The notes: generated by a model not told the origin, from the letters alone. DNA of 51,840 nt from a virus (IMGVR_UViG_3300041809_000571:1-51840); one strand, 5' to 3'. Counted from the stretch's first letter, positions 13,472-50,329 are shown. Translations and numbers: made by a program.

Positions 13472-13495
13472 CCTCCCACTCTCAGTATACCACGG
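13472..13495 (-). promoter_or_regulatory. conserved promoter+SD cassette P1 (ccgTGGTATACTgagagtGGGAGG)
   Basis: extended -10 TGGTATACT, then GGGAGG SD, ATG 9 nt later. Confidence 0.6.
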
Positions 13496-13518
13496 GGGAA
13501 CAGGTTTTGAAATAAAAT

Positions 13519-14247
13519 TTAGGACTTGGCACGAAGAGCCGCCACTTTTTCCAAGGCCAGCCGGGCAATCCGTTCGTTCTCTGCGATGCACTTCTCAGTC
13601 GCTCCGGGGTGTTCCTTGTAGGCGGACGTGGTGCCACGGTTCGTCAGGACGAGGTTCGCCGTTTCCTCAATGGCGTCCAACCAATCGGGCTGGATGTCGT
13701 CCGGGAAGTTAATTAGGTTCGAGTACGGCGCATATGCCGGGTACCAGTTGGTGTAATTTGTGTCTTTCAGCCGCTCGTCAATGTTATCCGGGACGCAGTA
13801 TTCCCACTTTTCATCCTCTGCCATCCGGTCCAACAGGGCCTTATGCTCGGCGGCTCGCTCCGCCTGAATCCGCTCGTACTTTTCCGGGTCCTGCTCCCGG
13901 CGCTTGCGTTCCTCCAAGATGATTTCGTCAATCATGGCGTCCAGCTTGGCATCTTCCTCAATCTCTTTGGGGGTTTGGGGGCGAAATTGAAGTTCCCGTT
14001 CTCGCTCCGCTTCCCATAGGACCTTCCGCTCTTTGTCTTGGCGTCGGCGGTCGAAGATGGCAGCGATGACCTGTGAGGCGGTCAGTCCGGGGGTATCCTC
14101 CCTCCCGCACACGTCCACCAATTGTCCGTCAATCCACTCATACCCGTTTCCGATGGTCATGAACAGGTGGTCTAAGGCGGCGGCACGATTGGGGAAGATG
14201 CAGGAAAAGGCACCACACGATACGAGCAGGGTATCCGCAACATTCAT
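13519..14247 (-). CDS. hypothetical protein
   Basis: ATG 14247 follows cassette P2 (GGAGGaattaccgacATG). Confidence 0.55.
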   Translation of the reverse strand: MNVADTLLVSCGAFSCIFPNRAAALDHLFMTIGNGYEWIDGQLVDVCGREDTPGLTASQVIAAIFDRRRQDKERKVLWEAERERELQFRPQTPKEIEEDAKLDAMIDEIILEERKRREQDPEKYERIQAERAAEHKALLDRMAEDEKWEYCVPDNIDERLKDTNYTNWYPAYAPYSNLINFPDDIQPDWLDAIEETANLVLTNRGTTSAYKEHPGATEKCIAENERIARLALEKVAALRAKS

Positions 14248-14257
14248 GTCGGTAATT

Positions 14258-14280
14258 CCTCCACTATCAGTATACCACGG
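14258..14280 (-). promoter_or_regulatory. conserved promoter+SD cassette P2
   Basis: ccgTGGTATACTgatagtGGAGG. Confidence 0.6.
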
Positions 14281-14297
14281 GATGGGAGTTCTTGAGA

Positions 14298-14783
14298 CTA
14301 TTTTCCATAGGGGGCTTCAACGGCATACCCCGCTGCATTTCGGAGGCCATAAATGCTGCCCCCGAGGGCGAATTCCGCCGCCTCCCGGAGCATCATTGCC
14401 AGCGCCAAGGCTTGCTTGGGGGTAAGGCAGTGGGGAGAGTCCATTTTCACGCACCCACTCAAAGTGTAGGTGTCCCCGATTACCTTGGTGCCGGGGCAGG
14501 CGTGAATGTGGGTGATGACCTCGTGGTCCTTGTAGACCGTACTGGTCAGCCCACCGTTCTCCATGAGCAGCCAGAATATCTCGGCGTCACCCTTGGCGAG
14601 TTCCAGCATCCGAATGCCTTCACGGGCTTCATCCACCGTCTGGAACCAGCAGGCTCCCGGCATGGGATTGATGCCACCCTTGCTGACCCAAAAGCCGTAG
14701 CGGTCTTTCTCAGGCCACGTGGGTTGTTCCCGAGGCCAAATCTTGTATCCGAGGTACTCAACCGTCTGTGTTTCCTTTGGCAT
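14298..14783 (-). CDS. hypothetical protein
   Basis: ATG 14783 preceded by TAGGAGAcgac (upstream stop, then SD). Confidence 0.5.
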   Translation of the reverse strand: MPKETQTVEYLGYKIWPREQPTWPEKDRYGFWVSKGGINPMPGACWFQTVDEAREGIRMLELAKGDAEIFWLLMENGGLTSTVYKDHEVITHIHACPGTKVIGDTYTLSGCVKMDSPHCLTPKQALALAMMLREAAEFALGGSIYGLRNAAGYAVEAPYGK

Positions 14784-14791
14784 GTCGTCTC

Positions 14792-15436
14792 CTACCAGCG
14801 GCGTCTGCGCCGGGGTTTTCGATTGGGGTCCGGGGGTTGCGGGGGCGGTACCGGCTTGAGTTCTTTCAGCACCCACGTGTCCACCCGCTCTTGCTGCCAA
14901 GCGATGTAGCGTTCAAGCTCTTTCTTTTGAAGGGCAAGGTGCCGCTCCACGTACACGGTGTTCTGTTTGGTCATGGTATCGAGGATTTCCTGCTCGCTGT
15001 GGGCGGACCAAGAGCCGAACCGTTCCTTTTTGCCCTCGTAGTTGATGTAGAACAGGTTCCACCAACCCTCTTGACCCTCTTCGAGCCATTCGGGTTTGAC
15101 GAATTCGGCGACGACTTCAACCTCACGCCACACGTAGCCGCTGCGAATCTGGATGCTGCCTTTGCGGTACTCGTGGTACCAGCACTTGTGCTCGGTCGCC
15201 GGGACGAGGGCCTTTTCAATCGCAACCTCAACCATGGCGAGGGTTTCTTTGGCGCTGTCGATGAACTTTTGAATGAGGGAGCAGTCCTGCTCGTAGGGTT
15301 TGTACCCGGCTCCACGGCAGATACCGTTGAAGAAGCCCCAACGGACATCATAACCGTGCAATGATAATACGTCTTTTGGAAGTTTCTGTTCGTTACCGCA
15401 GCACTGGCAGGAACCGACGTGGGTTGCTTTTTTCAA
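14792..15436 (-). CDS. hypothetical protein with basic Pro-rich C-terminus (TTG start)
   Basis: TTG at 15436 is spaced after cassette P3 exactly as the ATG is after P9 (GGGAGGaaacaccTTG). Confidence 0.45.
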   Translation of the reverse strand: MKKATHVGSCQCCGNEQKLPKDVLSLHGYDVRWGFFNGICRGAGYKPYEQDCSLIQKFIDSAKETLAMVEVAIEKALVPATEHKCWYHEYRKGSIQIRSGYVWREVEVVAEFVKPEWLEEGQEGWWNLFYINYEGKKERFGSWSAHSEQEILDTMTKQNTVYVERHLALQKKELERYIAWQQERVDTWVLKELKPVPPPQPPDPNRKPRRRRRW

Positions 15437-15443
15437 GGTGTTT

Positions 15444-15466
15444 CCTCCCACTCTCAGTATACCACG
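15444..15466 (-). promoter_or_regulatory. conserved promoter+SD cassette P3
   Basis: tcgTGGTATACTgagagtGGGAGG. Confidence 0.6.
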
Positions 15467-15487
15467 AGCGGGAGGATTACCAGAGAA

Positions 15488-15727
15488 TTATTTTATCAAT
15501 CTTCGGCCTTCAATCTTCACAACAAAGGGTCCGCACACCGCTACTCCCTTTTTGTTCACCGCCGCCTTCCGAGCCATCCCCCGCAGGTATTCGATGTCGG
15601 CGGAAATGGAGTAGTTGAGTTCTTCCCAATGTTCTCCCGTGTTGGTGGAGCGGGGAACGTCCCTCGGATGGGTCATCCGCCGCATGGCTTGCAGGTTTTC
15701 ATACAGCCGCCACATTTCCCTTGCCAT
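15488..15727 (-). CDS. hypothetical small protein
   Basis: ATG 15727 after GAGGAGGG SD; overlaps the upstream gene by 29 nt. Confidence 0.4.
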   Translation of the reverse strand: MAREMWRLYENLQAMRRMTHPRDVPRSTNTGEHWEELNYSISADIEYLRGMARKAAVNKKGVAVCGPFVVKIEGRRLIK

Positions 15728-16494: not shown

Positions 16495-16534
16495 AGTCTG
16501 CCTCCGTTGGATTTAGTAGGGGAGATTTCACCTT

Positions 16535-16557
16535 CTCCCATTATCAGTATACCACGG
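16535..16557 (-). promoter_or_regulatory. conserved promoter cassette P4 (variant)
   Basis: ccgTGGTATACTgataatGGGAGA. Confidence 0.55.
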
Positions 16558-16581
16558 AGAGAGCCAATTACGACGGAATTT

Positions 16582-16872
16582 TTAGAAGCTAAGTTCTTGC
16601 AGCTTCTTGATTTGCTTCCTGAGACTGATAATCTTCTTCACCCGCATGGTGTCCGCCCGGACCTGTGCTTCCGCTAAGGTGCGGTGCCACTCCTTGCCCT
16701 CGCCATGGAAGTTCTGGCTTCCCCAATCCAGCTTGACGCTGACCATCCGCTGACCGGCAGGAACATCCTCAAAGGTCTTGCCCGCAGAGGATAATTCCCA
16801 AGGAACGTATGGCTCCGCCTCCATCTCCTGAATGCCCTCACTGAGGGCATACTTGCTGACAAAGATTTTCAT
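16582..16872 (-). CDS. hypothetical protein
   Basis: ATGA overlap with 16869..17282; GAGAGG SD 9 nt upstream. Confidence 0.45.
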   Translation of the reverse strand: MKIFVSKYALSEGIQEMEAEPYVPWELSSAGKTFEDVPAGQRMVSVKLDWGSQNFHGEGKEWHRTLAEAQVRADTMRVKKIISLRKQIKKLQELSF

Positions 16873-17585: not shown

Positions 17586-17847
17586 GACTTTTCTCCTTGA
17601 GTCGTTTTTCTTCCATTTGCTTGCGCCTGATTCCTTCCCATCCGATGGTCAGGACATCATGCAGAAGGGGACTGACGCCCCCGAACCATTCCTCCTGCGT
17701 AACCTCGGGATGTTCCGCCCGGCTGACCTTGCACACGGGGCAGGTCATCGTCATGTGGCGGACGGCGCATCCCTTGCGCCCCTCGGGGCAAGGCAGGCTC
17801 ACTCTGCACCAGTCATCCGCTCCCCGGCATGGATATTGGCTGCTCAT
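17500..17847 (-). CDS. Cys-rich zinc-binding hypothetical protein
   Basis: ATGA overlap with the ligase stop; CRGADDWCRVSLPCPEGRKGCAVRHMTMTCPVC. Confidence 0.45.
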   Translation of the reverse strand: MSSQYPCRGADDWCRVSLPCPEGRKGCAVRHMTMTCPVCKVSRAEHPEVTQEEWFGGVSPLLHDVLTIGWEGIRRKQMEEKRLKEKSHEHVNRSAGLSTPGRKVQEIRRHMASVR

Positions 17848-18956
17848 TCGTAATCCCTGATGGCAATACCGACCGGGAACCGAGGCCGCTTATCCTGCGT
17901 CCAGTTCTGGTACTGTACGGTCAGTATCTTGCCCTTCCACAGTTCGTGATGCTCGTAGAGTTTCTTGAGATTTTTAAGACTGCCTTTGAGCTTCGCCTTA
18001 AAGGGCAAGCCATCTTTGGTCACACACAGGAACTTGCCGACGTGCCCCATCAAGCGGCCCCGGCCTTCTTCGATGCCGGTAATCGGGAATTCATTCGTCT
18101 CGAAATGCTTGTACTTGAGCAGGTCATATGACCGCTTGTTGACGTACTCGCCGTCCATGTTGCGGAGCATAAGACCTTCGTAGCCTAGCTCCACCATCTT
18201 GTCGTGCCACATGTCCACGTCGGCAGCGCTTTCGATGACGAACGTCATGACCTTAATGAGGGTCGTGCCGTTATCGGGGATGTGGTTCTTAAGCCAGAGG
18301 TCCCGCTCCAAGTTGTTGCCCTTGCCCGGCTTGTCGTAAATATGGTACTGGACAACCTCGTGCCCGGCGACCGGTTCATCCGGGCGGACCAGTTCCACGA
18401 TGTTCTCGAAGTCATCCTTGTAGTCGTGGTTGTAAAGCTCGCCGTCCAGATTGACATCGCCGGAAAACTGCTTGCGCACGGCGGCGATAATGTGAGGCAT
18501 GGACCGGATGGGTTTCCTCGTCCGGGTCCACATGGTAACGCTGTCGCCTTCTTTCAGAATGGTGCAGCGGATACCGTCCAGCTTGGGCTGACCCAAGCAG
18601 GGGAACTTGATTTTGTGTCCGTGCTCGGTGTACTTGTGGGCGAGCATGGGATTGATGCCGCCTTCGATGACTTCATCCAGCACGTCGTTTTGGGCGTCAG
18701 CTTCGCTCTTCACGTAGCCCTTCTTAAGCTGCTTCCGCCACTTGGCCTCTGCCTCAAGCTCCGCCTGCTGGCTGGAGGTTGTGGCGTTCGCTCGCCCGGC
18801 GTTCTTGCCCTTGGTGATGGTGTCGGTGGTGGTCTGTGGGTTGTTGGTGCCTACCTGCCCATAGCGGGTGATGATGGAGCTTCCCTCCACCCATATCTCC
18901 CAATACTGGATGGCTCCAGTGCTGGTTTTCTTGAAAAGCATTGGTAGGTCAATCAT
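17844..18956 (-). CDS. ATP-dependent DNA ligase
   Basis: motif I KLDGIR, motif III LDGELY, motif IV EGLMLR, motif V DLLKYK; SD GAGGAA; ATGA coupling with the upstream gene. Confidence 0.85.
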   Translation of the reverse strand: MIDLPMLFKKTSTGAIQYWEIWVEGSSIITRYGQVGTNNPQTTTDTITKGKNAGRANATTSSQQAELEAEAKWRKQLKKGYVKSEADAQNDVLDEVIEGGINPMLAHKYTEHGHKIKFPCLGQPKLDGIRCTILKEGDSVTMWTRTRKPIRSMPHIIAAVRKQFSGDVNLDGELYNHDYKDDFENIVELVRPDEPVAGHEVVQYHIYDKPGKGNNLERDLWLKNHIPDNGTTLIKVMTFVIESAADVDMWHDKMVELGYEGLMLRNMDGEYVNKRSYDLLKYKHFETNEFPITGIEEGRGRLMGHVGKFLCVTKDGLPFKAKLKGSLKNLKKLYEHHELWKGKILTVQYQNWTQDKRPRFPVGIAIRDYE

Positions 18957-19213
18957 TCAATTTCCTCACCCTCTTCATCGAATTCCGGTTCTTCCGGTTC
19001 CTCTTCGGACTGAGGCCACCCCATGTTAAGCTCTCGCTTCACATAATCTTCCGTGCTGATATTCCACCGTTTACAGACCTCAGCAAGTACGTGGTGGACA
19101 ATCTCACCCCGGTTCCAGCCCAAGGCGGTGCCTCGGAGCACTTCGCTCTTTGCCCAAGCCAAAGCTGCTTTGTTGGCTCGCCTTCGTTTTTCCCGGATGG
19201 TCTTACCTCGCAT
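18953..19213 (-). CDS. hypothetical small basic/acidic protein
   Basis: ATG 19213 after GAGG; the ORF-track N-terminal extension overlaps the upstream gene. Confidence 0.4.
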   Translation of the reverse strand: MRGKTIREKRRRANKAALAWAKSEVLRGTALGWNRGEIVHHVLAEVCKRWNISTEDYVKRELNMGWPQSEEEPEEPEFDEEGEEIE

Positions 19214-19577
19214 GGCGGGCCTCAATTTTCTTGCGAACCTCAGACAAGGGCACCGGAGTCCACCACATGTCCCGTTCGACTTTGAGTCCGGCAGGTCCCC
19301 GGATGCCTTCCAGTTCGCCGAGGGTGACGTAGCCCATTTCCGTCTCTTGCCCTTCCACCAGACCGAAGAACATCCAATCCCTCGGGGTGGGGGTGTGGGC
19401 CGGGTCGGTGCAATCGTACATGCCACACTCGCCGCAAACCTGACTCCCCTCGGTCACATACCAAGTCCAGTTGGACCATGGAGTGAAAAATTTCAAGACC
19501 ACTTTCGGGTCATCGACTTTTTCTTGGGAATACAGGGCGGGCAGGCTCTTTACGATGGCTTTGGTGAGCAGTTTCAT
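19203..19577 (-). CDS. hypothetical protein with FTPWSNWTWYVTEGS motif (DUF2958-like)
   Basis: ATG 19577 directly after cassette P5 (GGAGGGaagaATG). Confidence 0.45.
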   Translation of the reverse strand: MKLLTKAIVKSLPALYSQEKVDDPKVVLKFFTPWSNWTWYVTEGSQVCGECGMYDCTDPAHTPTPRDWMFFGLVEGQETEMGYVTLGELEGIRGPAGLKVERDMWWTPVPLSEVRKKIEARHAR

Positions 19578-19582
19578 TCTTC

Positions 19583-19605
19583 CCTCCACTTACAGTATAC
19601 CACGG
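19583..19605 (-). promoter_or_regulatory. conserved promoter+SD cassette P5
   Basis: ccgTGGTATACTgtaagtGGAGGG. Confidence 0.6.
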
Positions 19606-19617
19606 CAAGGGGAAATT

Positions 19618-19956
19618 TTACGAGATTTCTTTGGGGTCTACCTCAGCCCATCTCATGAGCTTGCGCATGACCGTGGGACTGAACCGCATACAGCCGATGC
19701 GGAGGAACCTTGCTTTCTTACTGTTCCACTCCCACCGGACATACGCCTTCCTGCCAGCCGTCTCCCCCTCCCAATAGGGAAGGTCAACGGTTGTCCCTCC
19801 CCTCAAGAAGTCAAGGAGCGCCCCGCACACGTCGCTTTTGAGTGCCTTATAAGGCGAGACACCTTTGGGTTGTCCCATTTCTTTCATCCACTCTCTGCCC
19901 AAAGTGTAGGCGGTGTAAGTCCCGTCAATGGTGTCGTAAGCTTTTATGGTCTGCAT
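19618..19956 (-). CDS. hypothetical protein
   Basis: SD GAGGGAAA 1 nt before ATG. Confidence 0.5.
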   Translation of the reverse strand: MQTIKAYDTIDGTYTAYTLGREWMKEMGQPKGVSPYKALKSDVCGALLDFLRGGTTVDLPYWEGETAGRKAYVRWEWNSKKARFLRIGCMRFSPTVMRKLMRWAEVDPKEIS

Positions 19957-20219
19957 TTTCCCTCACTCCCGTGCCAAGGGCACTTGGGGTCTACTATCTT
20001 GGGGACCGGTGCTCCGAAGCCGTTGAATATGTCCCCCAACCAGATTGCCCCCATGGAGATGTAATTGCAGAGACATCCCTCGGCAGCAGCATGTTCGTGG
20101 TCAACGACAAACTCCGTACCTGTGAGGTCACCCTTCCACAGGTGGAATTCCAGACGATGATTCACCGTTTTCCTCCCGGCAGGGGCCGGAATACCCGCAG
20201 GTCCGCCCGCCGCACCCAT
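19944..20219 (-). CDS. hypothetical protein; overlaps 20162..20338 in another frame (possible frameshift or fusion)
   Basis: ORF-track ORF; the only in-frame ATG lies inside the upstream small ORF. Confidence 0.35.
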   Translation of the reverse strand: MGAAGGPAGIPAPAGRKTVNHRLEFHLWKGDLTGTEFVVDHEHAAAEGCLCNYISMGAIWLGDIFNGFGAPVPKIVDPKCPWHGSEGKCRP

Positions 20220-20338
20220 CCGCCGCCGAAGGTTTCCCCGGCGACCAGTACGAGCGGGCGTCCCTGCTTGGCATAGATGACCCTCACCCTATACCTCTCA
20301 ATACCGATGCAATGAAGCCTTCCGGTGCGGGTTTTCAT
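20162..20338 (-). CDS. hypothetical small protein (MKTRTGRLHCIGIERYRVRVIYAKQGRPLVLVAGETFGGGW...)
   Basis: ATGA coupling with the zinc-ribbon gene; GGAGG 11 nt upstream; 58 aa. Confidence 0.3.
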   Translation of the reverse strand: MKTRTGRLHCIGIERYRVRVIYAKQGRPLVLVAGETFGGGWVRRADLRVFRPLPGGKR

Positions 20339-20454
20339 TTTTTCTTTGCCTCCACCAGTTTGAGTTTGTAGCTGCCGCAGGAGTCACAGACCCGGAGCAG
20401 CCCTACGTGCTTCATCGCTCCCACGTTGCCGCAGGATTTGCATCGGAAAATCAT
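20335..20454 (-). CDS. zinc-ribbon mini-protein (CxxC...CxxC, 39 aa)
   Basis: MIFRCKSCGNVGAMKHVGLLRVCDSCGSYK; ATGA overlaps at both ends. Confidence 0.35.
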   Translation of the reverse strand: MIFRCKSCGNVGAMKHVGLLRVCDSCGSYKLKLVEAKKK

Positions 20455-20912
20455 TCATCCTCCCCGGTGGGGAATATCTCGGAGAATCCGCAGAGGGAGT
20501 AACCGATGTCCCGGTAGAACTCCTTGTACTCTTCCAGCGAGAATGCGGGGTTGTTTGAAAAGATGCCCCGCTGGAAAGCCACTGTCATGGTGTTGAAGAT
20601 GCCGCCCTCGGGAAGCCGCTTGCACTCATCGGCAACCCAACGAAGCAGCTTGTTCGGGACCCACCGAATGGTGCCATGTTCGTCCCTGTAGATGGGGTGT
20701 TTGGATTCCAACAGCAGGTCGCCGTAATACTCTAGGACTTCGGCGTTGTTGCGCAGCCCGGCGTCGGATTTTTCGTACTCTTCCTTGGCAACGGCTGCAA
20801 GTTTTTCGTAGAGTTTGGTGGGAAGGACAAGCGTGGCTGGCTCTCCGTCAACCATGACCTTGACCGCTGTCCGGCTGGCAGGGGCCTGCTTATGACACAA
20901 TGGGCAACTCAT
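20451..20912 (-). CDS. hypothetical protein
   Basis: ATG 20912 in ATGA overlap with the upstream stop; begins MSCPLCHKQ. Confidence 0.5.
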   Translation of the reverse strand: MSCPLCHKQAPASRTAVKVMVDGEPATLVLPTKLYEKLAAVAKEEYEKSDAGLRNNAEVLEYYGDLLLESKHPIYRDEHGTIRWVPNKLLRWVADECKRLPEGGIFNTMTVAFQRGIFSNNPAFSLEEYKEFYRDIGYSLCGFSEIFPTGEDE

Positions 20913-21103
20913 AGTTCTCTTCCTCCTTGGTCTAAGACTCCCCAACTGGCACCTTGGGGCGTTGTGGGGAATCCGCATTGCTTAAGCTGTTCGGCGACCC
21001 AAGCGGCGATTGCCGGGGTCGATTTCTTGTGCATCTTATCTGCCGCCGTGAAGGCGACTTGAAACATGATGTCGATGAGTTCTTGCTCCCTTGTCTTAGC
21101 CAC
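20909..21103 (-). CDS. hypothetical small protein (GTG start)
   Basis: GGGAGGcgaagaGTG; overlaps the stop of the zinc-ribbon gene. Confidence 0.35.
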   Translation of the reverse strand: MAKTREQELIDIMFQVAFTAADKMHKKSTPAIAAWVAEQLKQCGFPTTPQGASWGVLDQGGREL

Positions 21104-21269
21104 TCTTCGCCTCCCGGAGACGTTTGACTGTCTCCCGGTCATAACACTTGTCCGCTTTGCAGGACGGATTAGGGCACTCCGTGCGTATGTTCAGGCTATG
21201 CCAGTCGTACAATTCTCCGCAAGTTGGACACTCCACGATGCGATATTCCGGCACGGCGTAATCCAGCAC
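21096..21269 (-). CDS. zinc-ribbon mini-protein (CPTCGE...CPNPSCKADKC, 57 aa, GTG start)
   Basis: GGAGGcgttctaGTG; TAGTG overlap with the upstream stop. Confidence 0.35.
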   Translation of the reverse strand: MLDYAVPEYRIVECPTCGELYDWHSLNIRTECPNPSCKADKCYDRETVKRLREAKSG

Positions 21270-21625
21270 TAGAACGCCTCCGAGTCAAGAAAGGTTGGTT
21301 GCGAGGGGCTGGCGGTATTCCCGGACCAGCCAAGAGCGTTGGCAGCAGCGACAATCTTCGGAAAGGACTTGGCGGACCGGCATTTCTTAACCGGGTCCCA
21401 ACGGTGCATCTTGGTCAGGAAGAGGGCACGGTGGTCGGTAAAAACTACCTTGTTGCTGGCAGCATTGTAACCCACCCACCCAATCAGGTTCCAGAAGCAT
21501 CCGTGAGCGCATACGCCGCTTCCCGGCGTCATTTCACGAGTGCAGCCGCACAAGGCGCAGTGGGGACGACCTACCGACCGCTTGCCGACTGCCTTAACCG
21601 TGTAGCGTTGCGATTGGCTCTCCAA
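21269..21625 (-). CDS. Cys-rich hypothetical protein (HCALCGCTREMTPGSGVCAHGC), TTG start after cassette P6
   Basis: cassette P6 lies inside the ORF-track ORF 21269..21844, so the true start must be downstream of it: GGAGGGagccTTG. Confidence 0.4.
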   Translation of the reverse strand: MESQSQRYTVKAVGKRSVGRPHCALCGCTREMTPGSGVCAHGCFWNLIGWVGYNAASNKVVFTDHRALFLTKMHRWDPVKKCRSAKSFPKIVAAANALGWSGNTASPSQPTFLDSEAF

Positions 21626-21630
21626 GGCTC

Positions 21631-21653
21631 CCTCCACTATCAGTATACCACGG
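21631..21653 (-). promoter_or_regulatory. conserved promoter+SD cassette P6
   Basis: ccgTGGTATACTgatagtGGAGGG. Confidence 0.6.
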
Positions 21654-21677
21654 AGCCAAGAAAAATTTCGAGAATTT

Positions 21678-21953
21678 TTAGGGGTACACGGGTTTTCCCG
21701 CCTGTTCGTAGGCTTCCTTGGGGACCACCCTGCCGCCGAAAATCTTACGGTAATCGCAGGCGACCTGCCAAGTGAAGGGTTGCGAGAAGTTTCCGTCCGT
21801 GTACAACACCCGGAACTGTCCGTTTCGCCTGTGCCAGTCAACACAATGCTCGGCGTTAGGGTCGTCCCGCCATGGGTTACCTCCGCCTCGGAGAATACCG
21901 ACCGTTGCCGGAAAGAGAAACAGAACAGCGATAATTGCTAAACCCCACCACAT
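21678..21953 (-). CDS. small membrane/secreted protein (N-terminal hydrophobic helix)
   Basis: AAGGAGGccaaaATG; MWWGLAIIAVLFLFPATVGIL. Confidence 0.5.
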   Translation of the reverse strand: MWWGLAIIAVLFLFPATVGILRGGGNPWRDDPNAEHCVDWHRRNGQFRVLYTDGNFSQPFTWQVACDYRKIFGGRVVPKEAYEQAGKPVYP

Positions 21954-23350: not shown

Positions 23351-23374
23351 TCTCCCACTCTCAGTATACCACGG
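23351..23374 (-). promoter_or_regulatory. conserved promoter+SD cassette P7
   Basis: ccgTGGTATACTgagagtGGGAGA. Confidence 0.6.
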
Positions 23375-23551
23375 ACCGAGGGGAAATATAGGAATTTTTA
23401 TGAGTCTGACGAAAACAGCCTTGTTGCATTCCGCTATAGTGGGGGTGTTGTGATATGCATCAAAATCACCCCTGACCAAACGTCAAGTAATTGAAAACAA
23501 AGGTCAAAATGTTTGGCTATTGGATTGCAATATACACTCCCGGAGGAATAT

Positions 23552-23632
23552 ATGGTTGCCATCTTCGTAGCACTCATGTTTATCGGCTGCGTCCTCGTGG
23601 ACTGTTGCCAGCACAAACTGATGAAGCACTAA
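23552..23632 (+). CDS. 26-aa hydrophobic peptide (MVAIFVALMFIGCVLVDCCQHKLMKH)
   Basis: caaTATACActcccGGAGGaatatATG, a cassette-like TATACA+GGAGG context on the + strand inside a 250-nt gap of the minus-strand block; its stop overlaps the stop of 23629..23880. Confidence 0.3.
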   Translation: MVAIFVALMFIGCVLVDCCQHKLMKH

Positions 23633-23880
23633 GCGTTCACCAGTTCACAGTACTTTTTGTCCATCTTCATGTCTTTGGTCTTGGTGACCAGTGACTTGTC
23701 AATCATCTGGATTGACTCCACCACGGTGCCTTCTCCATCCATGTAGGTATCGTCGTCGCCAAAGCGGTTGACCTTGCGACCGATGTACAGGAGCGGGGTT
23801 TCCTTAAGCACTTCCAAGAGCATGGTCTTGGCACGCTTACCCGGCTCCGGGGTGAACCAGAGTTTGAGGTAGTGGGTCAT
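23629..23880 (-). CDS. hypothetical small protein
   Basis: ATGA coupling; GGGGAGAAAGG SD. Confidence 0.45.
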   Translation of the reverse strand: MTHYLKLWFTPEPGKRAKTMLLEVLKETPLLYIGRKVNRFGDDDTYMDGEGTVVESIQMIDKSLVTKTKDMKMDKKYCELVNA

Positions 23881-24134
23881 ACCGAAAACCTTTCTCCCCC
23901 ACGGGGCAGGTCGTTGACCATGAACAGCCGCTCCCGGAGACCTTGGCGCAAGGCGTCCATGACGAAATCGTCCGGCGTGGCGGAGAACCACTTGCAAAGT
24001 TGGTCGTAGCTCATGCCGTTCTTGCGTTTCTTGAGGCGGCGGGCAATCTGCTTCATCAGCCCCTTCAACCCGTCGAAGGTAACCACGGCGGAGTAATCAA
24101 TGTGACGGCTATCGTCAATCATACATGCTCTCAT
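23877..24134 (-). CDS. hypothetical small basic protein
   Basis: AAAGGAcaccATG. Confidence 0.45.
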   Translation of the reverse strand: MRACMIDDSRHIDYSAVVTFDGLKGLMKQIARRLKKRKNGMSYDQLCKWFSATPDDFVMDALRQGLRERLFMVNDLPRGGERFSV

Positions 24135-24143
24135 GGTGTCCTT

Positions 24144-24380
24144 TCAGCCGAGGCGTTTCGCCAGTTCCGTTGCCAGTGTGACGTGGGTGCGACCACGGGC
24201 TAAATCCCCCGTATAGGGTACTGCCGACAGCACCCAATGCAGACCGCCGCCCGAGCCGCCCTCAATGCGGACGCTAAACCCGCCGCCCGGCGAAGAGACG
24301 TAGACGTGGTTATGGGGACATTCCCGAACGAAGTCGAAGCGTTTCAACATGCTCACAAACTGTTCAAGGGTCGTTTTCAT
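24144..24380 (-). CDS. hypothetical small protein (first gene of operon P8)
   Basis: ATG 24380 follows cassette P8 (GAGGAtacctATG). Confidence 0.45.
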   Translation of the reverse strand: MKTTLEQFVSMLKRFDFVRECPHNHVYVSSPGGGFSVRIEGGSGGGLHWVLSAVPYTGDLARGRTHVTLATELAKRLG

Positions 24381-24386
24381 AGGTAT

Positions 24387-24407
24387 CCTCACTTTCAGTA
24401 TACCTCG
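24387..24407 (-). promoter_or_regulatory. conserved promoter cassette P8 (variant cgaGGTATACTgaaagtGAGGA)
   Basis: same architecture; the TG of the extended -10 is replaced by AG. Confidence 0.5.
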
Positions 24408-24428
24408 AAATGGGATGAAATTGCAGGA

Positions 24429-24659
24429 TTATTTGGTCAGGCCCCGGCGATTTTCCGAGTAGCTCGTCAGGTCAAGCTCGCCATGGACCGCAAAGAATTT
24501 CTTCTTTTCCTCCGCCCACCGGTCGGAGTCCATCCACGGTTGCGCCACGAGCGTGGCTCCCTCGCAGGTGTAGCAGGTGTAGCGGGGCCGGGGGTTGAAT
24601 CCCGCCGTGTCGAACTCAATCTCGTGGTCGGTACTGGTCTTGTAAAAGCCCTCTCTCAT
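24429..24659 (-). CDS. hypothetical small protein
   Basis: GGAGGAAATATG; ATGA coupling. Confidence 0.45.
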   Translation of the reverse strand: MREGFYKTSTDHEIEFDTAGFNPRPRYTCYTCEGATLVAQPWMDSDRWAEEKKKFFAVHGELDLTSYSENRRGLTK

Positions 24660-24982
24660 ATTTCCTCCGTGTGACCACAGGTGCGGCATGACCAGCCGTC
24701 ACCCGTGACATCAGAATAGGATTCCATCTTGCCGCCGCAGCCGGGGCAAGGTTTGCTTATGTCCACGCTTTTGTAACGGGGTTCCTTGAAACTTTTGGGG
24801 GGTTTGAGCCGGGCGGTGACCTCAATGTAGAAGTCGCCGGAATCCAGCCCCAAGGCAGCGCCAATCTCTTCGTCCAAGGCCACGTAGGGTTCTTGTGCGG
24901 GTGTGCCCCGAACGTTGATGCCACGCCCACAGGGACGCATGTAGGCATGTCCTACGAACTTGTACCGTCGTCGTTTTGCCAT
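24656..24982 (-). CDS. basic protein with C-terminal zinc ribbon (CPGCGG...CRTCGH)
   Basis: TAATG coupling with the upstream gene. Confidence 0.5.
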   Translation of the reverse strand: MAKRRRYKFVGHAYMRPCGRGINVRGTPAQEPYVALDEEIGAALGLDSGDFYIEVTARLKPPKSFKEPRYKSVDISKPCPGCGGKMESYSDVTGDGWSCRTCGHTEEI

Positions 24983-25209
24983 TATTTGTTTTCTGCCTCG
25001 AACTCAGCAGCCTCCCGACCTTTGTCTTCCGCCTTTTGCAGGCACTCCTTGCACGGGGTGACTAGCAGGGTGCGGCTCAGTATCCCGTAACGGGAGGTTT
25101 CCTCGTACTCAACCTCCAGCTTATCCCCGCACGCATCGCAGGTCATGGTGATGTCAAGCTCCACCTTTTCGACTTCCACTCTTGTGGCTTTGATTGTAAA
25201 CTCCATCAT
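24982..25209 (-). CDS. zinc-ribbon-like small acidic protein (CDAC...CKEC)
   Basis: AGGAGGactgATG. Confidence 0.45.
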   Translation of the reverse strand: MMEFTIKATRVEVEKVELDITMTCDACGDKLEVEYEETSRYGILSRTLLVTPCKECLQKAEDKGREAAEFEAENK

Positions 25210-25505
25210 CAGTCCTCCTGTGCTTTCACAAGCTCCGGGTTTGCCATCTTGGCGAGGGCAATCAGGTCGGCGATATTGACGTTCAATCGGTCTTTGCCCC
25301 GGACGATGTGGATGCCCAAATTCAGATTATTGAGATTGTCCGCCATCTTGGACATGTGGGCAGTGGGGTGGGCGACGGTGGTGTTATCCAGACCCAATCC
25401 ATAGGGAGTGGCATAGACGCCCTGTTCGTCCGGCTCCGCCATGTCAGGGCGGCAACCCTCGGTAATTTTCCGCAGAGCGGTCTGTAAGTCCAGAAGTCGT
25501 CCCAT
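25209..25505 (-). CDS. hypothetical protein
   Basis: GGAGActtATG. Confidence 0.5.
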   Translation of the reverse strand: MGRLLDLQTALRKITEGCRPDMAEPDEQGVYATPYGLGLDNTTVAHPTAHMSKMADNLNNLNLGIHIVRGKDRLNVNIADLIALAKMANPELVKAQED

Positions 25506-25512
25506 AAGTCTC

Positions 25513-25806
25513 CTATCGGTTCAGGTCCGCACCGTTGATGGTCAGGATGTTCCCCATCGGGCGTTTGAAGTTGGGGACGCCGTACTTGTACTTAATACGG
25601 TAAATCGTGCCGTCCGTCAGGTCCACAACGTAGACCCCGCCGCTGCCCTTGTCAAGGCAGATGTATCGTTGCTTGCGCACGAACTTTGTCCGGTAGCAGG
25701 GGCCGTCGTAACCGAGGCATTTGTAAGATGCCTCGAAGGCGGCTCGTCCAGCCTCATGCCACTCGTCAATCACCTGTTGCACACGGGCGTCAGAAACGTC
25801 AATCAT
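25513..25806 (-). CDS. hypothetical protein
   Basis: ATGA coupling with the upstream gene; GGAG 6 nt upstream. Confidence 0.5.
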   Translation of the reverse strand: MIDVSDARVQQVIDEWHEAGRAAFEASYKCLGYDGPCYRTKFVRKQRYICLDKGSGGVYVVDLTDGTIYRIKYKYGVPNFKRPMGNILTINGADLNR

Positions 25807-26024: not shown

Positions 26025-26031
26025 GGTGTTT

Positions 26032-28917: not shown

Positions 28918-28952
28918 ATTTGGGCTTTCCCGCCCTTATTAGGGAGAAGACT

Positions 28953-38437: not shown

Positions 38438-38460
38438 CCCTCCACTCTCAGTATACCTCA
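38438..38460 (-). promoter_or_regulatory. conserved promoter cassette P10 (tgaGGTATACTgagagtGGAGGG)
   Basis: paired divergently with P11. Confidence 0.55.
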
Positions 38461-38493
38461 CTCCCCACAATTTTATGAGGATTTTTTTACCGG

Positions 38494-38515
38494 CGTGGTA
38501 TACTGTAAGTGGAGG
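38494..38515 (+). promoter_or_regulatory. conserved promoter+SD cassette P11 (plus strand)
   Basis: gcgTGGTATACTgtaagtGGAGGcaccATG. Confidence 0.6.
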
Positions 38516-38519
38516 CACC

Positions 38520-38880: not shown

Positions 38881-39669
38881 ATGAAAGTAGAAACTCGGTT
38901 GAAAAAGGCGGACTTATCCCTCTATGACAGGCTGCTCGTGGAGGATGCCTTAGACCCCAATCAAAGCCACTCCCTGCCGCCAAACCGGCGTTGGGTGCCC
39001 ACCTTGGAATGGTATGACCGGGCACCGGGCGGGGCGGTCAATCCCCCTGAACCGGTGGAGAAGCCTGAGAGGGTCCGGCTAAGAGACAAGGACGTTCCCC
39101 AAGATAAAGTGGACCTCACTGTTTTTCTCTTGAAAAGCAGTACTTTATCTTATGGCGAGATTGCCAAGCTTGCCGAACTCAAATGGAATAGCACGGTGCA
39201 GCAAATCGCCAAGAAGTACAAATTACGGAGCTACGCAGTGGTCACCCCCGTCAATCGCCAACAGTACAAGGAGTCCTGTAGTTTTACTCCCCTCCAGAAA
39301 GAACAATTTGAATACAGACGGATTCTGGCGGAGGTTCTCAGGCGGAACCCCGAAGCCTCTTACCAAGAGGTTGCTGACTCTTTGAACATAAGTGTTTCGA
39401 TGGTTTTCAAAGCAGCGGAGGAGTTTGGGGTGGAGACCCGCAGGCACCGGGGCCGTCCCAATATGGGTAAAGGTGACCGCAGGGGGTTGCATTACCGGGC
39501 ACGCCGCTGTTGGGTCCAGAATTGTCTGGTGCGTCGGAAGAAGGGGCTTGCTCCCCTACCCAAGGAAGTCTTCATGGCTGACTTTTATGAGAGGCATGGA
39601 GGAACCTCCGCAGCGGTTGAAGGTCCGGTAGCGCCCATCCCTTGTCCACAGGATTGGGGAGAGGTCTAG
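38881..39669 (+). CDS. DNA-binding protein with two predicted HTH segments and an RGRP AT-hook-like motif
   Basis: GAGGtgtgtATG; LSYGEIAKLAELKWNSTVQQIAKKY and SYQEVADSLNISVSMVFKAAEEFG. Confidence 0.5.
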   Translation: MKVETRLKKADLSLYDRLLVEDALDPNQSHSLPPNRRWVPTLEWYDRAPGGAVNPPEPVEKPERVRLRDKDVPQDKVDLTVFLLKSSTLSYGEIAKLAELKWNSTVQQIAKKYKLRSYAVVTPVNRQQYKESCSFTPLQKEQFEYRRILAEVLRRNPEASYQEVADSLNISVSMVFKAAEEFGVETRRHRGRPNMGKGDRRGLHYRARRCWVQNCLVRRKKGLAPLPKEVFMADFYERHGGTSAAVEGPVAPIPCPQDWGEV

Positions 39670-47671: not shown

Positions 47672-47672
47672 G

Positions 47673-48293
47673 TTACTTCCTCCTCAGATTACCTAGCTGC
47701 TGAATATCCCTGCGAAGGGCAGGCTCTTTCAGTTCCGAGATATCCCGGAAGTTCTTCATGACGCCGTTCCGGGCTTCCTCATGTACACCGGCTGCCTTCA
47801 TGGCATCGGTAAACCAAGCCAGCAAGGTTGCAGTATAAAACTTCACCTTATCCCCGTCGAAGTTGAAGATGTCCCGCTTGCTGAGAGCCTCGGTGTCCAT
47901 GATAGACGCCCGCTCTTCCTTGAGACCCTTGACCGCTTCCGTGTAAGTCCGTAGCTTCCACGACTCACTCATAGTGGCATCGTTACGAAGCTTGACCAGC
48001 CCGGCGCTGACATCGTGAATGACCTGTGTGATTAACCGGCAGGTCTCGGAAGGGTCAGCTTCGGGGTCCCGGAGCATGTCCCGGACCTTATCCATCAAGG
48101 TCATATCTTCTGGTGTCTTGGCGCTTTCCACAATTTGACCATTAGACAAGACCTTGACATCCAAGGATACGGGGGCTTTGAAGTTTCCGGCCTCATCGAA
48201 ATCAATGGGCTTTACTTCCGCCGTGGCTTCCACCTTGGCTTCCACTGGTTCCTGTGGTTTTTCCATCTCCGGTACTGTTCCCAACTCTTCCAT
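47673..48293 (-). CDS. hypothetical acidic protein
   Basis: ORF adjacent to and coupled with its flanking genes. Confidence 0.5.
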   Translation of the reverse strand: MEELGTVPEMEKPQEPVEAKVEATAEVKPIDFDEAGNFKAPVSLDVKVLSNGQIVESAKTPEDMTLMDKVRDMLRDPEADPSETCRLITQVIHDVSAGLVKLRNDATMSESWKLRTYTEAVKGLKEERASIMDTEALSKRDIFNFDGDKVKFYTATLLAWFTDAMKAAGVHEEARNGVMKNFRDISELKEPALRRDIQQLGNLRRK

Positions 48294-49936
48294 TAGATAT
48301 CTCCTGCTGTGGGCACATTGCCCATCTCTACATCAAGTCGCTCAGGGGTGTTGTATTCGATGTCCCCCACCTCGCTACGGGAAGTCAGGTCGTACTCTTC
48401 CATAAGCTTTTTGGCATCGGTGGGAGCCTTACCCGAGGCTACCTTTCCCGTTTTTTCCATACCGGGGAAGGATACCAAGGTTCCGCCCGTCAACCCGCAG
48501 TGCATATCTTGCCGGTAGACGCAATCGGCGCACTTGATTGCCCCGATGATGGCGTTGTTGACTGCAAGCTTCTGTTTAAGGAGTTTGCAGTCGATTTGAG
48601 AAAGGGCAATCTTGAGGCCCTTGGCCTTAAGAGAGGCGACGAATTCCTTGATTGCTCTCCCGGCGTGTACCGACCCTATCTTATTGATACCATGCTGGTA
48701 GATGGACTCAAGGGACTTTCCTCCCTTGTGCATCTTTTCAATGGTAGCGACAGTGAATGGAGCGGAGGCTGTCTTGTGCTGTTCTTCCCTCTCCACCCGT
48801 AAGCTCTCTATGGTCTTTGCCGAGGTCTTCTGAACCTGACGGTTGGCAAAGTGCTTGGGTTCTACCCGCATACCATCCCGGTTGGCAAGAGCGACCAAAG
48901 CCGCTTTCTTGGACCCGGCTGGCACGCCTGCGGTCAGCCGGTTGACAACCGTGACAAGCTCCTTGGCATTTGCTACCACGGGTAGATGGTAGAGGTTGCA
49001 AGTCTTGGCCTTAAAGAAAGCGCAGCCCTCGCACCCGGCTACCTTCTTCACGGAGGCGGCACGGGGCTTGATTCCTGCGGCTTTCCAAGCGTTGAACTGC
49101 CGGACGCAGTCGGCGGAGGTTACCGGTCGGGACCCCTGCTTGGGGATGGTGAACACCGGCTTGGAGCATTCCGGGCAGAGCGCTACGGCGTCCCGGAACT
49201 TCGGCTTGACTTCCTTGTTGCAGTGACGGCAGAAGTTCTTCTTTTCCGAGGCGATGACTTGGTTGCTCTTCTCGTAGGCCGGGCTTTCCATGTCCATCTG
49301 GGAGTTGGGGAGGAAACCCTCGGAGGAGCCGGGTTCCATGTAAGCAAGACCCAGTACCCCGGCGTTATTGTTCAGATAGGACATCCCCATGTTGTCCTTT
49401 TTGTCCAGAAGTTCGATTTCAGCGACCTTCTGAACGAGGGCGGCAACCCGTGCGGGCGGCGTTCCTTGATTGAGGAGCTTCTTCACATAGGCAAGGATTT
49501 CGGCGTCAGACCGGTTACGGTTGGCGACCCCCTCCCGTCCATGCTCATCCTTGGAGGTCGCTTCACTGTGGGCCTTCTCGAAGTCCATGGTGATTTCATC
49601 GAATAGGGATTCATCGCTGCCCCGTTCATTCTTGTAGTCCTCGGCATGAGTGGCGAGCCGGGTCCTTCCCGTTTGTCCGGCACCCAGCCGGGGGAGGGCC
49701 GCTTCCTTCTCTGCCATACGGTTGAGGAGCGTGGCGGACTTAGAGTCGGACGGAAGTTCGGTATGCTTGGACTCCCCGGCGAGGTCGTCAAGGAAACTCT
49801 CATCAACGTACTGCTGGGTACGGTCCTCTTGCTCCTCGCCAGACTTTACGGCGTCCTTGAGACCGACCAAATCCCAGTCGGGTTTCCGGTCTTCCAAGAA
49901 TTCATCAATGATTGACGAGTAGATTTTCTCTGCCAT
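48293..49936 (-). CDS. large hypothetical protein (547 aa) with three Cys clusters
   Basis: AAAGGGGctgaaaATG; CRHCNKEVKPKFRDAVALCPECSKP, CEGCAFFKAKTC, CADCVYRQDMHC. Confidence 0.55.
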   Translation of the reverse strand: MAEKIYSSIIDEFLEDRKPDWDLVGLKDAVKSGEEQEDRTQQYVDESFLDDLAGESKHTELPSDSKSATLLNRMAEKEAALPRLGAGQTGRTRLATHAEDYKNERGSDESLFDEITMDFEKAHSEATSKDEHGREGVANRNRSDAEILAYVKKLLNQGTPPARVAALVQKVAEIELLDKKDNMGMSYLNNNAGVLGLAYMEPGSSEGFLPNSQMDMESPAYEKSNQVIASEKKNFCRHCNKEVKPKFRDAVALCPECSKPVFTIPKQGSRPVTSADCVRQFNAWKAAGIKPRAASVKKVAGCEGCAFFKAKTCNLYHLPVVANAKELVTVVNRLTAGVPAGSKKAALVALANRDGMRVEPKHFANRQVQKTSAKTIESLRVEREEQHKTASAPFTVATIEKMHKGGKSLESIYQHGINKIGSVHAGRAIKEFVASLKAKGLKIALSQIDCKLLKQKLAVNNAIIGAIKCADCVYRQDMHCGLTGGTLVSFPGMEKTGKVASGKAPTDAKKLMEEYDLTSRSEVGDIEYNTPERLDVEMGNVPTAGDI

Positions 49937-49952
49937 TTTCAGCCCCTTTTCC

Positions 49953-50249
49953 TTAGAACGTGAGGTCCCCGAGGATGTCTTCAAGGAAACCAGCCGGATT
50001 GTCTTCCGGTGCAGCCGGGAGATGGTCACCGTTATCAACCTCATCTCCTACCAGCCGAACAATTTTGTTGCCCCGTATCTGCCAGAAGTCCTTGCTGCTT
50101 TCGCAGATGAACGTGTTCCCAGCACAGCGGGAAAGCCCGAGAGAGGCAGCTTTACGCAACAACTCCCTCGGGATTCCCGAGGAGGGTAGAAAGTTGAAAA
50201 GCCTTGATGTTTCTAGCCCAAAGGGCACTTGCATCCGCAGCTTACCCAT
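49953..50249 (-). CDS. hypothetical small protein
   Basis: GGAGAGtgtcATG. Confidence 0.45.
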   Translation of the reverse strand: MGKLRMQVPFGLETSRLFNFLPSSGIPRELLRKAASLGLSRCAGNTFICESSKDFWQIRGNKIVRLVGDEVDNGDHLPAAPEDNPAGFLEDILGDLTF

Positions 50250-50306
50250 GACACTCTCCTATTAGATGGGGTAGGTAGTTAAAATTTCGGTTTTTTACCC
50301 CAATTT

Positions 50307-50329
50307 CGAGGTATACTGTAAGTGGGAAG
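50307..50329 (+). promoter_or_regulatory. conserved promoter cassette P12 (plus strand, cgaGGTATACTgtaagtGGGAAG)
   Basis: same variant as P8. Confidence 0.5.

Follow-up and report, generated by a model that had tools for sequence, protein, structure and literature searches.

Repeated promoter-like cassettes joined to Shine-Dalgarno sites at gene starts of an uncultivated soil/peat jumbo phage

The cassettes and the genes behind them

IMGVR_UViG_3300041809_000571 is a 51,840-base stretch of viral DNA, analysed here over its whole length and called the window, in which a short element resembling an extended -10 promoter joined to a Shine-Dalgarno site recurs just upstream of genes. We refer to each copy of this element as a cassette. 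Exact-protein look-ups placed the window within a 364,142-base-pair (bp) metagenomic contig (ENA ERZ27249816, k141_1180871; contig coordinate = window coordinate + 12276) with phage genes on both flanks of the window, and the same window proteins were also found in JGI samples. The source is an uncultivated jumbo phage from soil/peat. By our own gene calls, in agreement with the public ones for this contig, coding sequence makes up ~94% of the window and non-coding DNA ~6%; no tRNA genes were found in the window, nor any nucleotide-level match of it to deposited phages. The large terminase subunit (TerL) is recognisable at 26110-28149 on the plus strand. Relatives by terminase similarity show 51-98% identity and lie on contigs of up to 463 kb, while in 50,697 phage records the top protein-level counterpart of the terminase belongs to Tunturiibacter phage Tunturi_5, with 98% of the protein aligned at 44% identity. 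Tunturi_5 is a jumbo myovirus of 308.7 kb that was isolated on an acidobacterium from Arctic tundra soil (PMC11924767). As Tunturi_5 is the closest cultured relative by TerL, the host of the present phage is probably an acidobacterium as well.

The sequence GGTATACT occurs exactly 12 times in the window, ten times on the minus and twice on the plus strand, compared to a mean of 0.45 and a maximum of 4 in dinucleotide-preserving shuffles. The pattern GGTATACT-N5-TGG retrieves the identical 12 sites. A preliminary description of the window had proposed a 24-nucleotide (nt) repeat with 12 copies, and all of these are present at the positions it gave to within 1-2 nt. Six copies lie at three or fewer mismatches from its 24-nt consensus, where none is expected. 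A 24-nt position weight matrix derived from the 12 copies gives them scores of 30.1-39.5 bits, and a scan of both strands of the whole window found no other site of at least 8 bits and no copy in coding DNA. Because of this gap in matrix scores, the element is all-or-none, not the top of a continuum. All 12 copies are wholly non-coding and co-oriented with the adjacent downstream gene. Copies reading GAGGTATACT, with GAGG in place of GTGG, had been counted as two; there are three (24404, 38457 and 50310). Two further copies, CGTGGTATACT-ATAACTGAGGAGA and CGTGGTATACT-GTTACTGAGGAGA, lie ~8 kb beyond the right end of the window. Both vary in the 12 nt downstream of the -10 hexamer, so the conservation there is looser than the window implies.

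Nine minus-strand cassettes between 13.4 and 26.1 kb split ~16 kb into nine head-to-tail units, whose genes mostly span 60-240 codons and are of unassigned function; an ATP-dependent DNA ligase, a radical-SAM and a HicB-like gene are found with them. Cassette 1 (13472-13521, core 13472-13495) has its predicted transcription start (+1) at 13477 and is followed by an ATG at 13462. Cassette 2 (14257-14306, core 14257-14280, predicted +1 at 14262) leads to the ATG at 14247 of a 242-amino-acid (aa) gene, and cassette 3 (15444-15493, core 15444-15467, predicted +1 at 15449) to a TTG at 15436. Behind cassette 4 (copy 16553; 16534-16583, core 16534-16557, predicted +1 at 16539) the called gene begins at 16494, giving a 45-nt leader, and a GTG at 16531 opens an open reading frame (ORF) of only 44 codons. 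The operon of cassette 5 (19582-19631, core 19582-19605, predicted +1 at 19587, ATG at 19577) includes the DNA ligase gene (17844-18956). Cassettes 6 (21630-21679, core 21630-21653, predicted +1 at 21635, TTG at 21625) and 7 (23351-23400, core 23351-23374, predicted +1 at 23356, ATG at 23346) are followed by the weakest copy, GAGGTATACTGAAAGTGAGGAT, in cassette 8 (24385-24434, core 24385-24408, predicted +1 at 24390, ATG at 24380). The last of the nine, cassette 9 (26032-26081, core 26032-26055, predicted +1 at 26037, ATG at 26024), stands back to back with the plus-strand terminase gene.

The remaining three cassettes lie further to the right. At 38.4-38.5 kb, cassette 10 (38438-38487, minus strand; core 38438-38461, predicted +1 at 38443, ATG at 38433) and cassette 11 (38467-38516, plus strand; core 38493-38516, predicted +1 at 38511, ATG at 38520) form a divergent pair with AT blocks in common. 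This pair has a 157-codon gene on one side and, on the side of cassette 11, an operon that includes a 262-aa protein with two helix-turn-helix (HTH) motifs (38881-39669). In cassette 12 (copy 50310; 50280-50329, plus strand; core 50306-50329, predicted +1 at 50324) GGGAAG abuts the ATG at 50330, while the public gene call lies 165 nt further on, at 50495; this is the sole copy near leaderless geometry. The start codon had been placed 4-9 nt past GGGAGG throughout, which is the case in 10/12 copies and fails for copies 16553 and 50310. Independent public gene calls begin right after the cassettes, confirming that N-terminal extensions running through them are ORF-finder artefacts. The earlier view of the minus-strand block as successive operons without intervening terminators also stands: terminator-like sites are not enriched at 10-30 kb and are, if anything, depleted there (14 found vs 22.5 expected).

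Beyond the window, cassette copies precede peptide deformylase and PNKP-like genes. Cassettes are absent from the terminase block, from a plus-strand block at 0.2-10.3 kb with Ig-like domain proteins, from a minus-strand block at 40-50 kb that includes a 1604-residue protein, and from a glycosyltransferase cluster. This split would correspond to the classical division into non-structural (early/middle) and structural (late) genes, where the temporal classes are predictions.

Anatomy of the cassette

We built a profile from 24 distinct copies, comprising the 12 in the window, the two just past its right end and, for the remainder, copies on related viral contigs, with positions numbered from the -10 hexamer. 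The relatives' copies were found with patterns fixing T-15, G-14, TATACT, G-6 and AGTGG, which biases the counts there; the 14 copies of the present phage, found with GGTATACT or GTATAC alone, form an unbiased set. From upstream to downstream, the profile consists of an A-tract, AAAAAWT (-44 to -38), an AAWWTT block (-32 to -27), a pyrimidine-rich spacer (-27 to -17), C G T G G (-17 to -13), the TATACT hexamer (-12 to -7), G at -6, A at -3, T, G and G at -1, +1 and +2, and purines in a GGAGG-like run (+3 to +6) followed by A at +7. G-14 and TATACT are invariant across the 24 copies and A-3, T-1 and G+1 are present in all of them, with T-15 in 20, G-6 in 22 and G+2 in 21. The latter bias does not touch the copies of the present phage, where eight invariant bases as well as A-3, T-1 and G+1 are found in 14/14. 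The hexamer conforms to TAnnnT, with A-11 and T-7, in 12/12 window copies and in both copies just outside. TG stands at -15/-14 in nine of the 12 window copies (TGG-TATACT), the other three reading AGG-TATACT.

A cross-phylum study found that start sites lie 7 bp after the -10, that in 86-93% of cases a 3-bp start element (Y-1 R+1 Y/R+2) centred at this position captures the start site, and that TG/TRTG-type extended -10 motifs and AG-rich discriminators occur in some lineages (PMC12641261). In the cassettes, T-1 and G+1 (14/14 copies) and G+2 (11 of the 12 window copies) are centred 7 bp past TATACT, and the predicted leaders measure 9-15 nt in 10/12 copies. An AT-rich AAAATT element had been noted upstream; AT-rich sequence is indeed present there, as two blocks in fixed register, the A-tract and AAWWTT. 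The A-tract coincides with the position of the proximal UP-element subsite. There is no good -35 hexamer, as had also been noted: the consensus at -35 to -30 is tgtaAa, and a TTGACA-like hexamer 16-18 bp upstream of the -10 reaches the 9-of-12 threshold of our scanner in only two of the 12 copies. A generic promoter scan of 10-30 kb showed no enrichment (nine matches vs 9.0 expected). Sigma54 and T4-late (TATAAATA) readings, compared by eye, did not fit.

The position, orientation and register of the cassettes, their TG plus TAnnnT, start element and A-tract all agree with the core of the preliminary description, namely an extended -10 promoter fused to a Shine-Dalgarno site and heading operons. 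As far as sequence can tell, the cassettes very probably serve a sigma-dependent multisubunit RNA polymerase as promoters. Conservation of the 12 nt past the -10 had been thought to exceed what sigma70 needs and to suggest a phage-specific determinant, a regulator or an RNA-processing site. This is either unsupported or unnecessary: the positions resolve into a discriminator rich in A and G, the start element of 3 bp and the Shine-Dalgarno run (PMC12641261), they vary in the copies outside the window, and no RNA structure is supported. For the downstream bases nothing beyond a promoter is needed; in the choice of sigma something more may be involved.

The cassettes could instead be operators at gene starts whose promoter likeness is secondary, with one phage regulator switching transcription or translation of many operons together, as modelled on L5 stoperators and Cluster K start-associated sequences. 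Consistent with this, the motif is asymmetric, strictly oriented and directly before start codons with the Shine-Dalgarno run included, its invariance is above that of typical promoters, the 6-bp palindrome GTATAC lies inside it and HTH proteins are encoded in the same region. However, the palindromy stops at 6 bp, and conservation extends over ~50 bp with A-tracts in polymerase register, compared to 13-17 bp for such a site. The conserved span from -44 to +7 fits an RNA polymerase footprint, not a short operator, each element corresponds to a known polymerase contact, and otherwise ~16 kb of head-to-tail genes would be without any candidate promoter. We therefore consider operators very unlikely.

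The footprint also bears on another reading, in which the phage encodes a single-subunit (T7-like) or non-canonical RNA polymerase and the cassettes are its promoters. Promoters of this kind are typically ~20-25 bp long and uniform, with conservation limited to about -17 to +6, and include the first transcribed bases, and the uniform 24-nt core ending in GGGAGG/GGGAGA recalls the GGGAGA at +1 of T7. A polymerase gene could sit in the ~80% of the genome that is unread, and there are large proteins without a detectable family (1604, 775, 618 and 583 aa). Yet the A/T blocks at -44 to -38 and -32 to -27 fall outside the footprint of a single-subunit polymerase and the core is a canonical TG-TAnnnT. 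Moreover, neither a family match nor a DxDGD motif was found in ~70 kb of the 364 kb, and the cultured relative Tunturi_5 has no such polymerase annotated, nor any RNA polymerase subunit among its annotated gp1-gp345. On the ~20% of the genome that could be read, we consider this explanation very unlikely.

A third explanation places the function in read-through transcripts, where the cassette would act at the RNA level, either as a site of processing or through an anti-Shine-Dalgarno hairpin formed between the spacer and GGAGG. The spacer at -27 to -17 is pyrimidine-rich and able to pair in this way, strong hairpins are found in two copies (15463 and one in the related contig L001, z about -4), and the orthologous pair 21649/L003-7787 differs in sequence while keeping the complement to the region after the Shine-Dalgarno. 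As a general feature, however, such structure was not sustained. The folding z-score (minimum free energy) averages -0.19 over 23 copies, of which two reach about -4, and cognate spacer/Shine-Dalgarno duplexes (-7.77 kcal/mol) are hardly stronger than non-cognate ones (-7.09 kcal/mol; permutation p ~0.06). Moreover, GGTATACT and the A-tract, where conservation is strongest, would be placed in loops or outside helices, and an A-tract fixed at -44 to -38 has no RNA-level rationale. We regard this explanation as highly improbable. The two hairpin copies, at 15436-15500 (minus strand; cassette 3) and L001 ~2640-2720, form perfect complements of 6-8 bp (CCTCCC/GGGAGG, enclosing the -10 of cassette 3, and TTCCCTCC/GGAGGGAA). 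In both, the -10 is in the loop and the Shine-Dalgarno would be sequestered in read-through RNA.

Taken as sigma-dependent promoters, the cassettes may work as follows. The A-tract at -44 to -38 would stand in the place of an alpha C-terminal domain/UP contact, and the TG-type extended -10, CGTGG-TATACT, would substitute for the -35 hexamer. The AG-rich discriminator and the T-1 G+1 G+2 element would set initiation 7 bp past the -10. If initiation occurs at the predicted G, the Shine-Dalgarno site becomes the 5' end of the message, so that the RNA would begin with GG(G)AGG and reach its start codon 9-15 nt on. The most likely reader is the host primary sigma. The cassettes would drive early/middle non-structural genes, including the small-ORF arrays, the DNA ligase and a phage sigma-like gene, in transcription units arranged head-to-tail without terminators.

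Candidate readers of the cassettes

That these extended -10 plus Shine-Dalgarno cassettes are read by the host primary sigma is the fuller statement towards which we lean, with less assurance than for the promoters as such. Among 84 unrelated viral occurrences of the 11-mer CGTGGTATACT, nine have a TTGACA match of at least 5/6 at 16-18 bp, compared to 1-3 at control spacings; this excess indicates that in other viruses the 11-mer serves canonical promoters as their -10 region. At the orthologous site beside the terminase gene, a relative whose TerL is 65% identical carries TTGCAA-N18-TGGTATAAT. The acidobacterial siphovirus Tunturi_4 has ~17 canonical promoters, CTTGACAcc-N11-GGTG-TAnTAT, with GGTG directly before TAnTAT, which suggests that a G/TG motif before the -10 is normal for that host group. 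Finally, a cassette heads the operon of the sigma-like gene, which is what one would predict were the host polymerase to express this gene first.

Several points weigh against this reading. Promoter activity is itself a prediction from sequence, and the readable part of the phage is ~70 kb, about 20% of the 364-kb genome. No canonical promoters were found in these ~70 kb, nor in 300 kb of Tunturi_5, where TTGACA-N15-19-TAnnnT is absent. The invariance of C-8, G-13 and A-3 goes beyond known requirements of the sigma70 family, and the strong TTGACA -35 found in the ~17 promoters of Tunturi_4, which infects the probable host phylum, is missing from the cassettes. A 21-nt motif scan of 185,579 species genomes yielded five matches, all in unrelated metagenome-assembled genomes, compared to our own rough chance estimate of ~17; with matches at chance level and no prophage found, the motif does not identify the host. 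In addition, the start-codon repeats that Tunturi_5 itself possesses and a clade-conserved sigma-like protein make a phage-specified reader or activator a live alternative.

The sigma-like gene is the second gene behind cassette 12. Its 5' part lies at 51325-51840 (plus strand) and runs off the end of the window; in the related contig L058 (10831-11622) the protein has 263 aa. It is homologous to Tunturi_5 gp3 (tblastn E = 4e-36), which is annotated as 'RNA polymerase sigma factor'. We detected 271 members of this gp3-like family, on contigs of up to 1 Mb, and no Pfam match for it. The structure model is good (predicted local distance difference test, pLDDT, 80.6). Foldseek returned nothing significant for this model, and its top matches were sigmaE and sigmaE region 2 bound to -10 DNA; the predicted fold weakly resembles sigma regions 2 and 4.

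The preliminary description had instead pointed to the protein encoded at 36221-36952 (plus strand), a 243-aa protein with two sigma-region-4/LuxR-like HTH signals below threshold. As a reader of the cassettes it fares poorly, being an HTH protein without a detectable sigma region 2 that is conserved in relatives without the motif. Nor could it be sustained as a sigma factor: a PDB profile search found nothing, and its poor model (pLDDT 61) gave only non-significant LuxR/sigma4-type matches. The gp3-like protein (51325 onward) is the better candidate for a phage sigma. The 36221-36952 protein is 56-97% conserved across the huge-phage clade, including phages without the motif. As this conservation exceeds that of the terminase, we regard it as a core regulator. 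Some of its homologs are tagged as antitermination protein Q (PF06530).

Tunturi_5 (PP885688.1) contains two dense promoter-like repeat families at start codons. Class A, G(G/A)GTATTA(G/C), has 48 copies before replication and nucleotide-metabolism genes, and these are often within an inverted repeat. Class B, AAAGTCATCTTTGG-N13-TG-TAGGTTGA-N4+-ATG or, written differently, AAAGTCATCTTTGG-N13-TGTAGGTTGA, has 23 copies before ATP-dependent DNA ligase, peptide deformylase, methyltransferase and small ORFs, often in leaderless geometry with the ATG 7 nt after the hexamer. The description of Tunturi_5 does not mention either family (PMC11924767).

These repeats bear on a possible phage-specified reader, in which the sigma-like protein recognises GGTATACT together with AAATTC/AAWWTT, or an activator near -30 recruits the host polymerase, as modelled on the T4 MotA/AsiA middle promoters that lack a -35. 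Besides the 48 + 23 non-canonical repeats in a phage with zero canonical promoters in 300 kb, it draws on the excess of invariant positions over known sigma70 needs and on the missing -35 hexamer where host-type Tunturi_4 promoters carry a strong TTGACA. An AAA(T/G)TC block recurs upstream in the present phage, in Tunturi_5 class B and in a more distant relative (L085), and two HTH proteins with sigma-region-4-like motifs are encoded nearby. On the other hand, the sigma-like gene itself sits behind a cassette, so something else must fire that cassette first. Conservation of the gp3-like protein extends across the clade, but only the closest relatives (TerL ~98% identical) have GGTATACT. Furthermore, the cassettes have a textbook -10 region, TG-TAnnnT, and in unrelated phages TTGACA accompanies the same 11-mer. 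We consider a phage-specified reader unlikely, if far from negligible.

A similarly doubtful extension would be that the cassettes are no host-type promoters and belong to an initiation system shared by this clade of soil jumbo phages, whose hosts are probably Acidobacteriota. In it a very divergent gp3-family sigma-like protein, alone or with the tandem-HTH protein, reads a bipartite signal. This signal might consist of AAA(T/G)TC located ~20-24 bp upstream of a phage-specific -10-like block, and its specificity may co-evolve from phage to phage, as GGTATACT here and as TAGGTTGA and GGGTATTAG in Tunturi_5. Such a system would explain why canonical host promoters are absent from the readable parts of the genomes. 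As a separate observation, ACCGACTCCC is common to more distant relatives (L079, L081, L085, L086 and L088), ~60-100 nt upstream of the gp3-like gene. It is preceded ~22 nt upstream by an AT-rich block, for example TAAAATTCATTTTC, and looks like another clade-specific promoter-like signal.

Recombination at cassettes and comparison with known systems

Cassettes differ between close relatives. Contig L003 (IMGVR_UViG_3300009548_000041), whose terminase is 98% identical, is collinear with the window and lacks 23374-26027. The missing segment corresponds to the two operons between copies 23370 and 26051, in cassettes 7 and 9. The alignments on either side share 28 nt, equal to the cassette, and the hybrid L003 copy is flanked upstream as copy 26051 and downstream as copy 23370. 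Two further homology breaks lie at cassette edges, at 16533 and at 21651 (cassette 6), while one other deletion, 18947-21271, is not cassette-bounded. Near-identical copies may thus double as homologous recombination sites that add or remove whole operons. Recombination among them would homogenise the copies and keep them uniform, and therefore offers a non-functional explanation for invariance at positions that the polymerase does not read. L003 (7869-10230) also has a ~2.4-kb insertion in the terminase large-subunit gene that is absent from the window (cf. 26394-26472) and may represent an intein or a homing-endonuclease intron.

Other features were observed near the cassettes. A possible second, late-type motif, CCCTTATnTAGG(G)AGA, lies directly before the terminase gene (26093-26109) and the gene at 28953 (28934-28952), both on the plus strand, with a looser version at ~50045-50075 (minus strand) before the gene at 50044. 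Similar strings (CCCTTTATAGAAG, CCCTATAGAGAG and CCCTTTGTAGGGGAAG) precede several structural genes of Tunturi_5. Taken as a separate 'late' class, with CCCTTATnTAGGAGA ahead of both the terminase gene and 28953 and look-alikes in Tunturi_5, it was set aside, as regular-expression counts were too small to establish it. The clearest terminator-like structure near the cassette regions is a GC-rich hairpin followed by a T-run at 36008-36047 (plus strand), CCCGAGGGG-N10-CCCCTCGGG TTCAGCCTTTT, past the 35185-35973 gene. The glycosyltransferase cluster (29556-34622, minus strand) has four genes, GT2, GT6, GT11-like and a 781-aa double-domain enzyme, and adjoins an endonuclease VII gene and a C5 DNA methyltransferase gene (37146-37973). 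Left of the window, a gene in L056 (5544-6437; contig 8054-8947) has an Mtd_N (major tropism determinant) domain, hinting at a target of a diversity-generating retroelement, and adjoins a GIY-YIG endonuclease gene.

The cassettes provide a first usable transcription map for an uncultivated 364-kb soil/peat phage, with 14 predicted start sites, operon boundaries and corrected start codons. This map cleanly separates cassette-driven early-type genes from cassette-free packaging and virion modules. Jumbo phages related to Tunturi_5 combine dense phage-specific start-codon signals with a divergent sigma-like gene. The words promoter, sigma factor and RNA polymerase occur zero times in the paper on the only cultured relative (PMC11924767). 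As both Tunturi_5 and its host are in culture, the reader of these signals is experimentally testable. With promoter and ribosome-binding site in ~60 bp, the cassette is a candidate for a compact expression part in Acidobacteriota, for which genetic tools are scarce, and might be useful for annotating and engineering a poorly known group of phages and hosts.

Among cultured phages, the cassette looks like the counterpart of Tunturi_5 class B, judged by gene content and by TG + TAnnnT. Both have an upstream AAA(G/T)TC block, precede the same kinds of genes and lie directly before start codons. They differ in the hexamer (TATACT here, TAGGTT there), in the TG, which abuts the hexamer in class B, and in the Shine-Dalgarno leader of the present phage where many class B copies are leaderless in geometry. 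Tunturi_5 lacks GGTATACT, and the cassette is absent from the terminase neighbourhoods of TerL relatives with 51-75% identity, where repeats are mostly collagen-like coding repeats. One relative, IMGVR_UViG_3300018022_000003 (L073; terminase 73% identical, GC content 65%), has two copies of CCCCGCCTGC(C/T)CCGTGTAGGACGGTGTATACTAT at 788 and 6063 (minus strand), in which the hexamer is again TATACT, preceded by GGTG as in the Tunturi_4 promoters. Tunturi_4 (PP885687.1) itself contains CTAGGAT 93 times in 88 kb, on both strands and also within genes, compared to ~11 expected.

Asymmetric, oriented repeats at gene starts are also known from mycobacteriophages. The Cluster K start-associated sequences, which contain the ribosome-binding site, and the L5 stoperators are protein- or ribosome-related sites of 13-14 bp without a -10, unlike the ~50 bp with complete promoter anatomy found here. 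Sevostyanova et al. in 2007 reportedly described leaderless, '-10 next to ORF' expression in Thermus phage phiYS40. The cassettes resemble that arrangement, which is known from Deinococcus-Thermus (PMC12340547), in that the -10 lies within ~20 nt of the start codon and the predicted transcript is nearly without a leader, and differ in keeping a full Shine-Dalgarno run that would form the 5' end of the RNA.

The PeSLs (promoter-early stem-loops) of T4-type phages, described by Arbiol et al. (2010) and Comeau et al. (2014), consist of an AT-rich region with an upstream stop codon, a strong sigma70-like early promoter, a stem-loop, a Shine-Dalgarno and a start codon; they concentrate before ORFans, and exchanges between copies shuffle modules (PMC2839356, PMC4122927). 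The present element is likewise a small intergenic repeat that runs from an AT-rich stretch with an upstream stop codon through a promoter to the Shine-Dalgarno and start of the next gene. It is also enriched before small genes of unassigned function, and its copies are recombination joints for module gain and loss. In contrast to PeSLs, it depends on an extended -10 in the absence of a -35 hexamer, forms neither a stem-loop nor a terminator consistently, and starts its Shine-Dalgarno run at the predicted +1/+2. The lineage differs too: the present phage is a jumbo phage whose nearest cultured relative infects Acidobacteriota, whereas PeSLs are found in T4-type myoviruses of Gram-negative hosts. 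By its sequence, the element works like a PeSL yet is not one, since two defining features fail. Nevertheless, shuffling of modules at identical promoter cassettes in the manner of PeSLs seems not to be limited to the T4 group.

Extended -10 promoters (TGn, TRTG/-16 region) operate without a -35 element (PMC12641261, PMC2613000). The cassettes share with them the TG before TAnnnT, no usable -35, a predicted start 7 bp on at Y-1R+1 and AT-rich upstream sequence, and are set apart by their unusual uniformity and by a hexamer that is TATACT, not TATAAT. The middle and late promoters of Thermus phage P23-45 are likewise of the extended -10 type without a -35. By every sequence criterion the cassette would be a member of this class, and it is a known kind of phage control element rather than a new mechanism.

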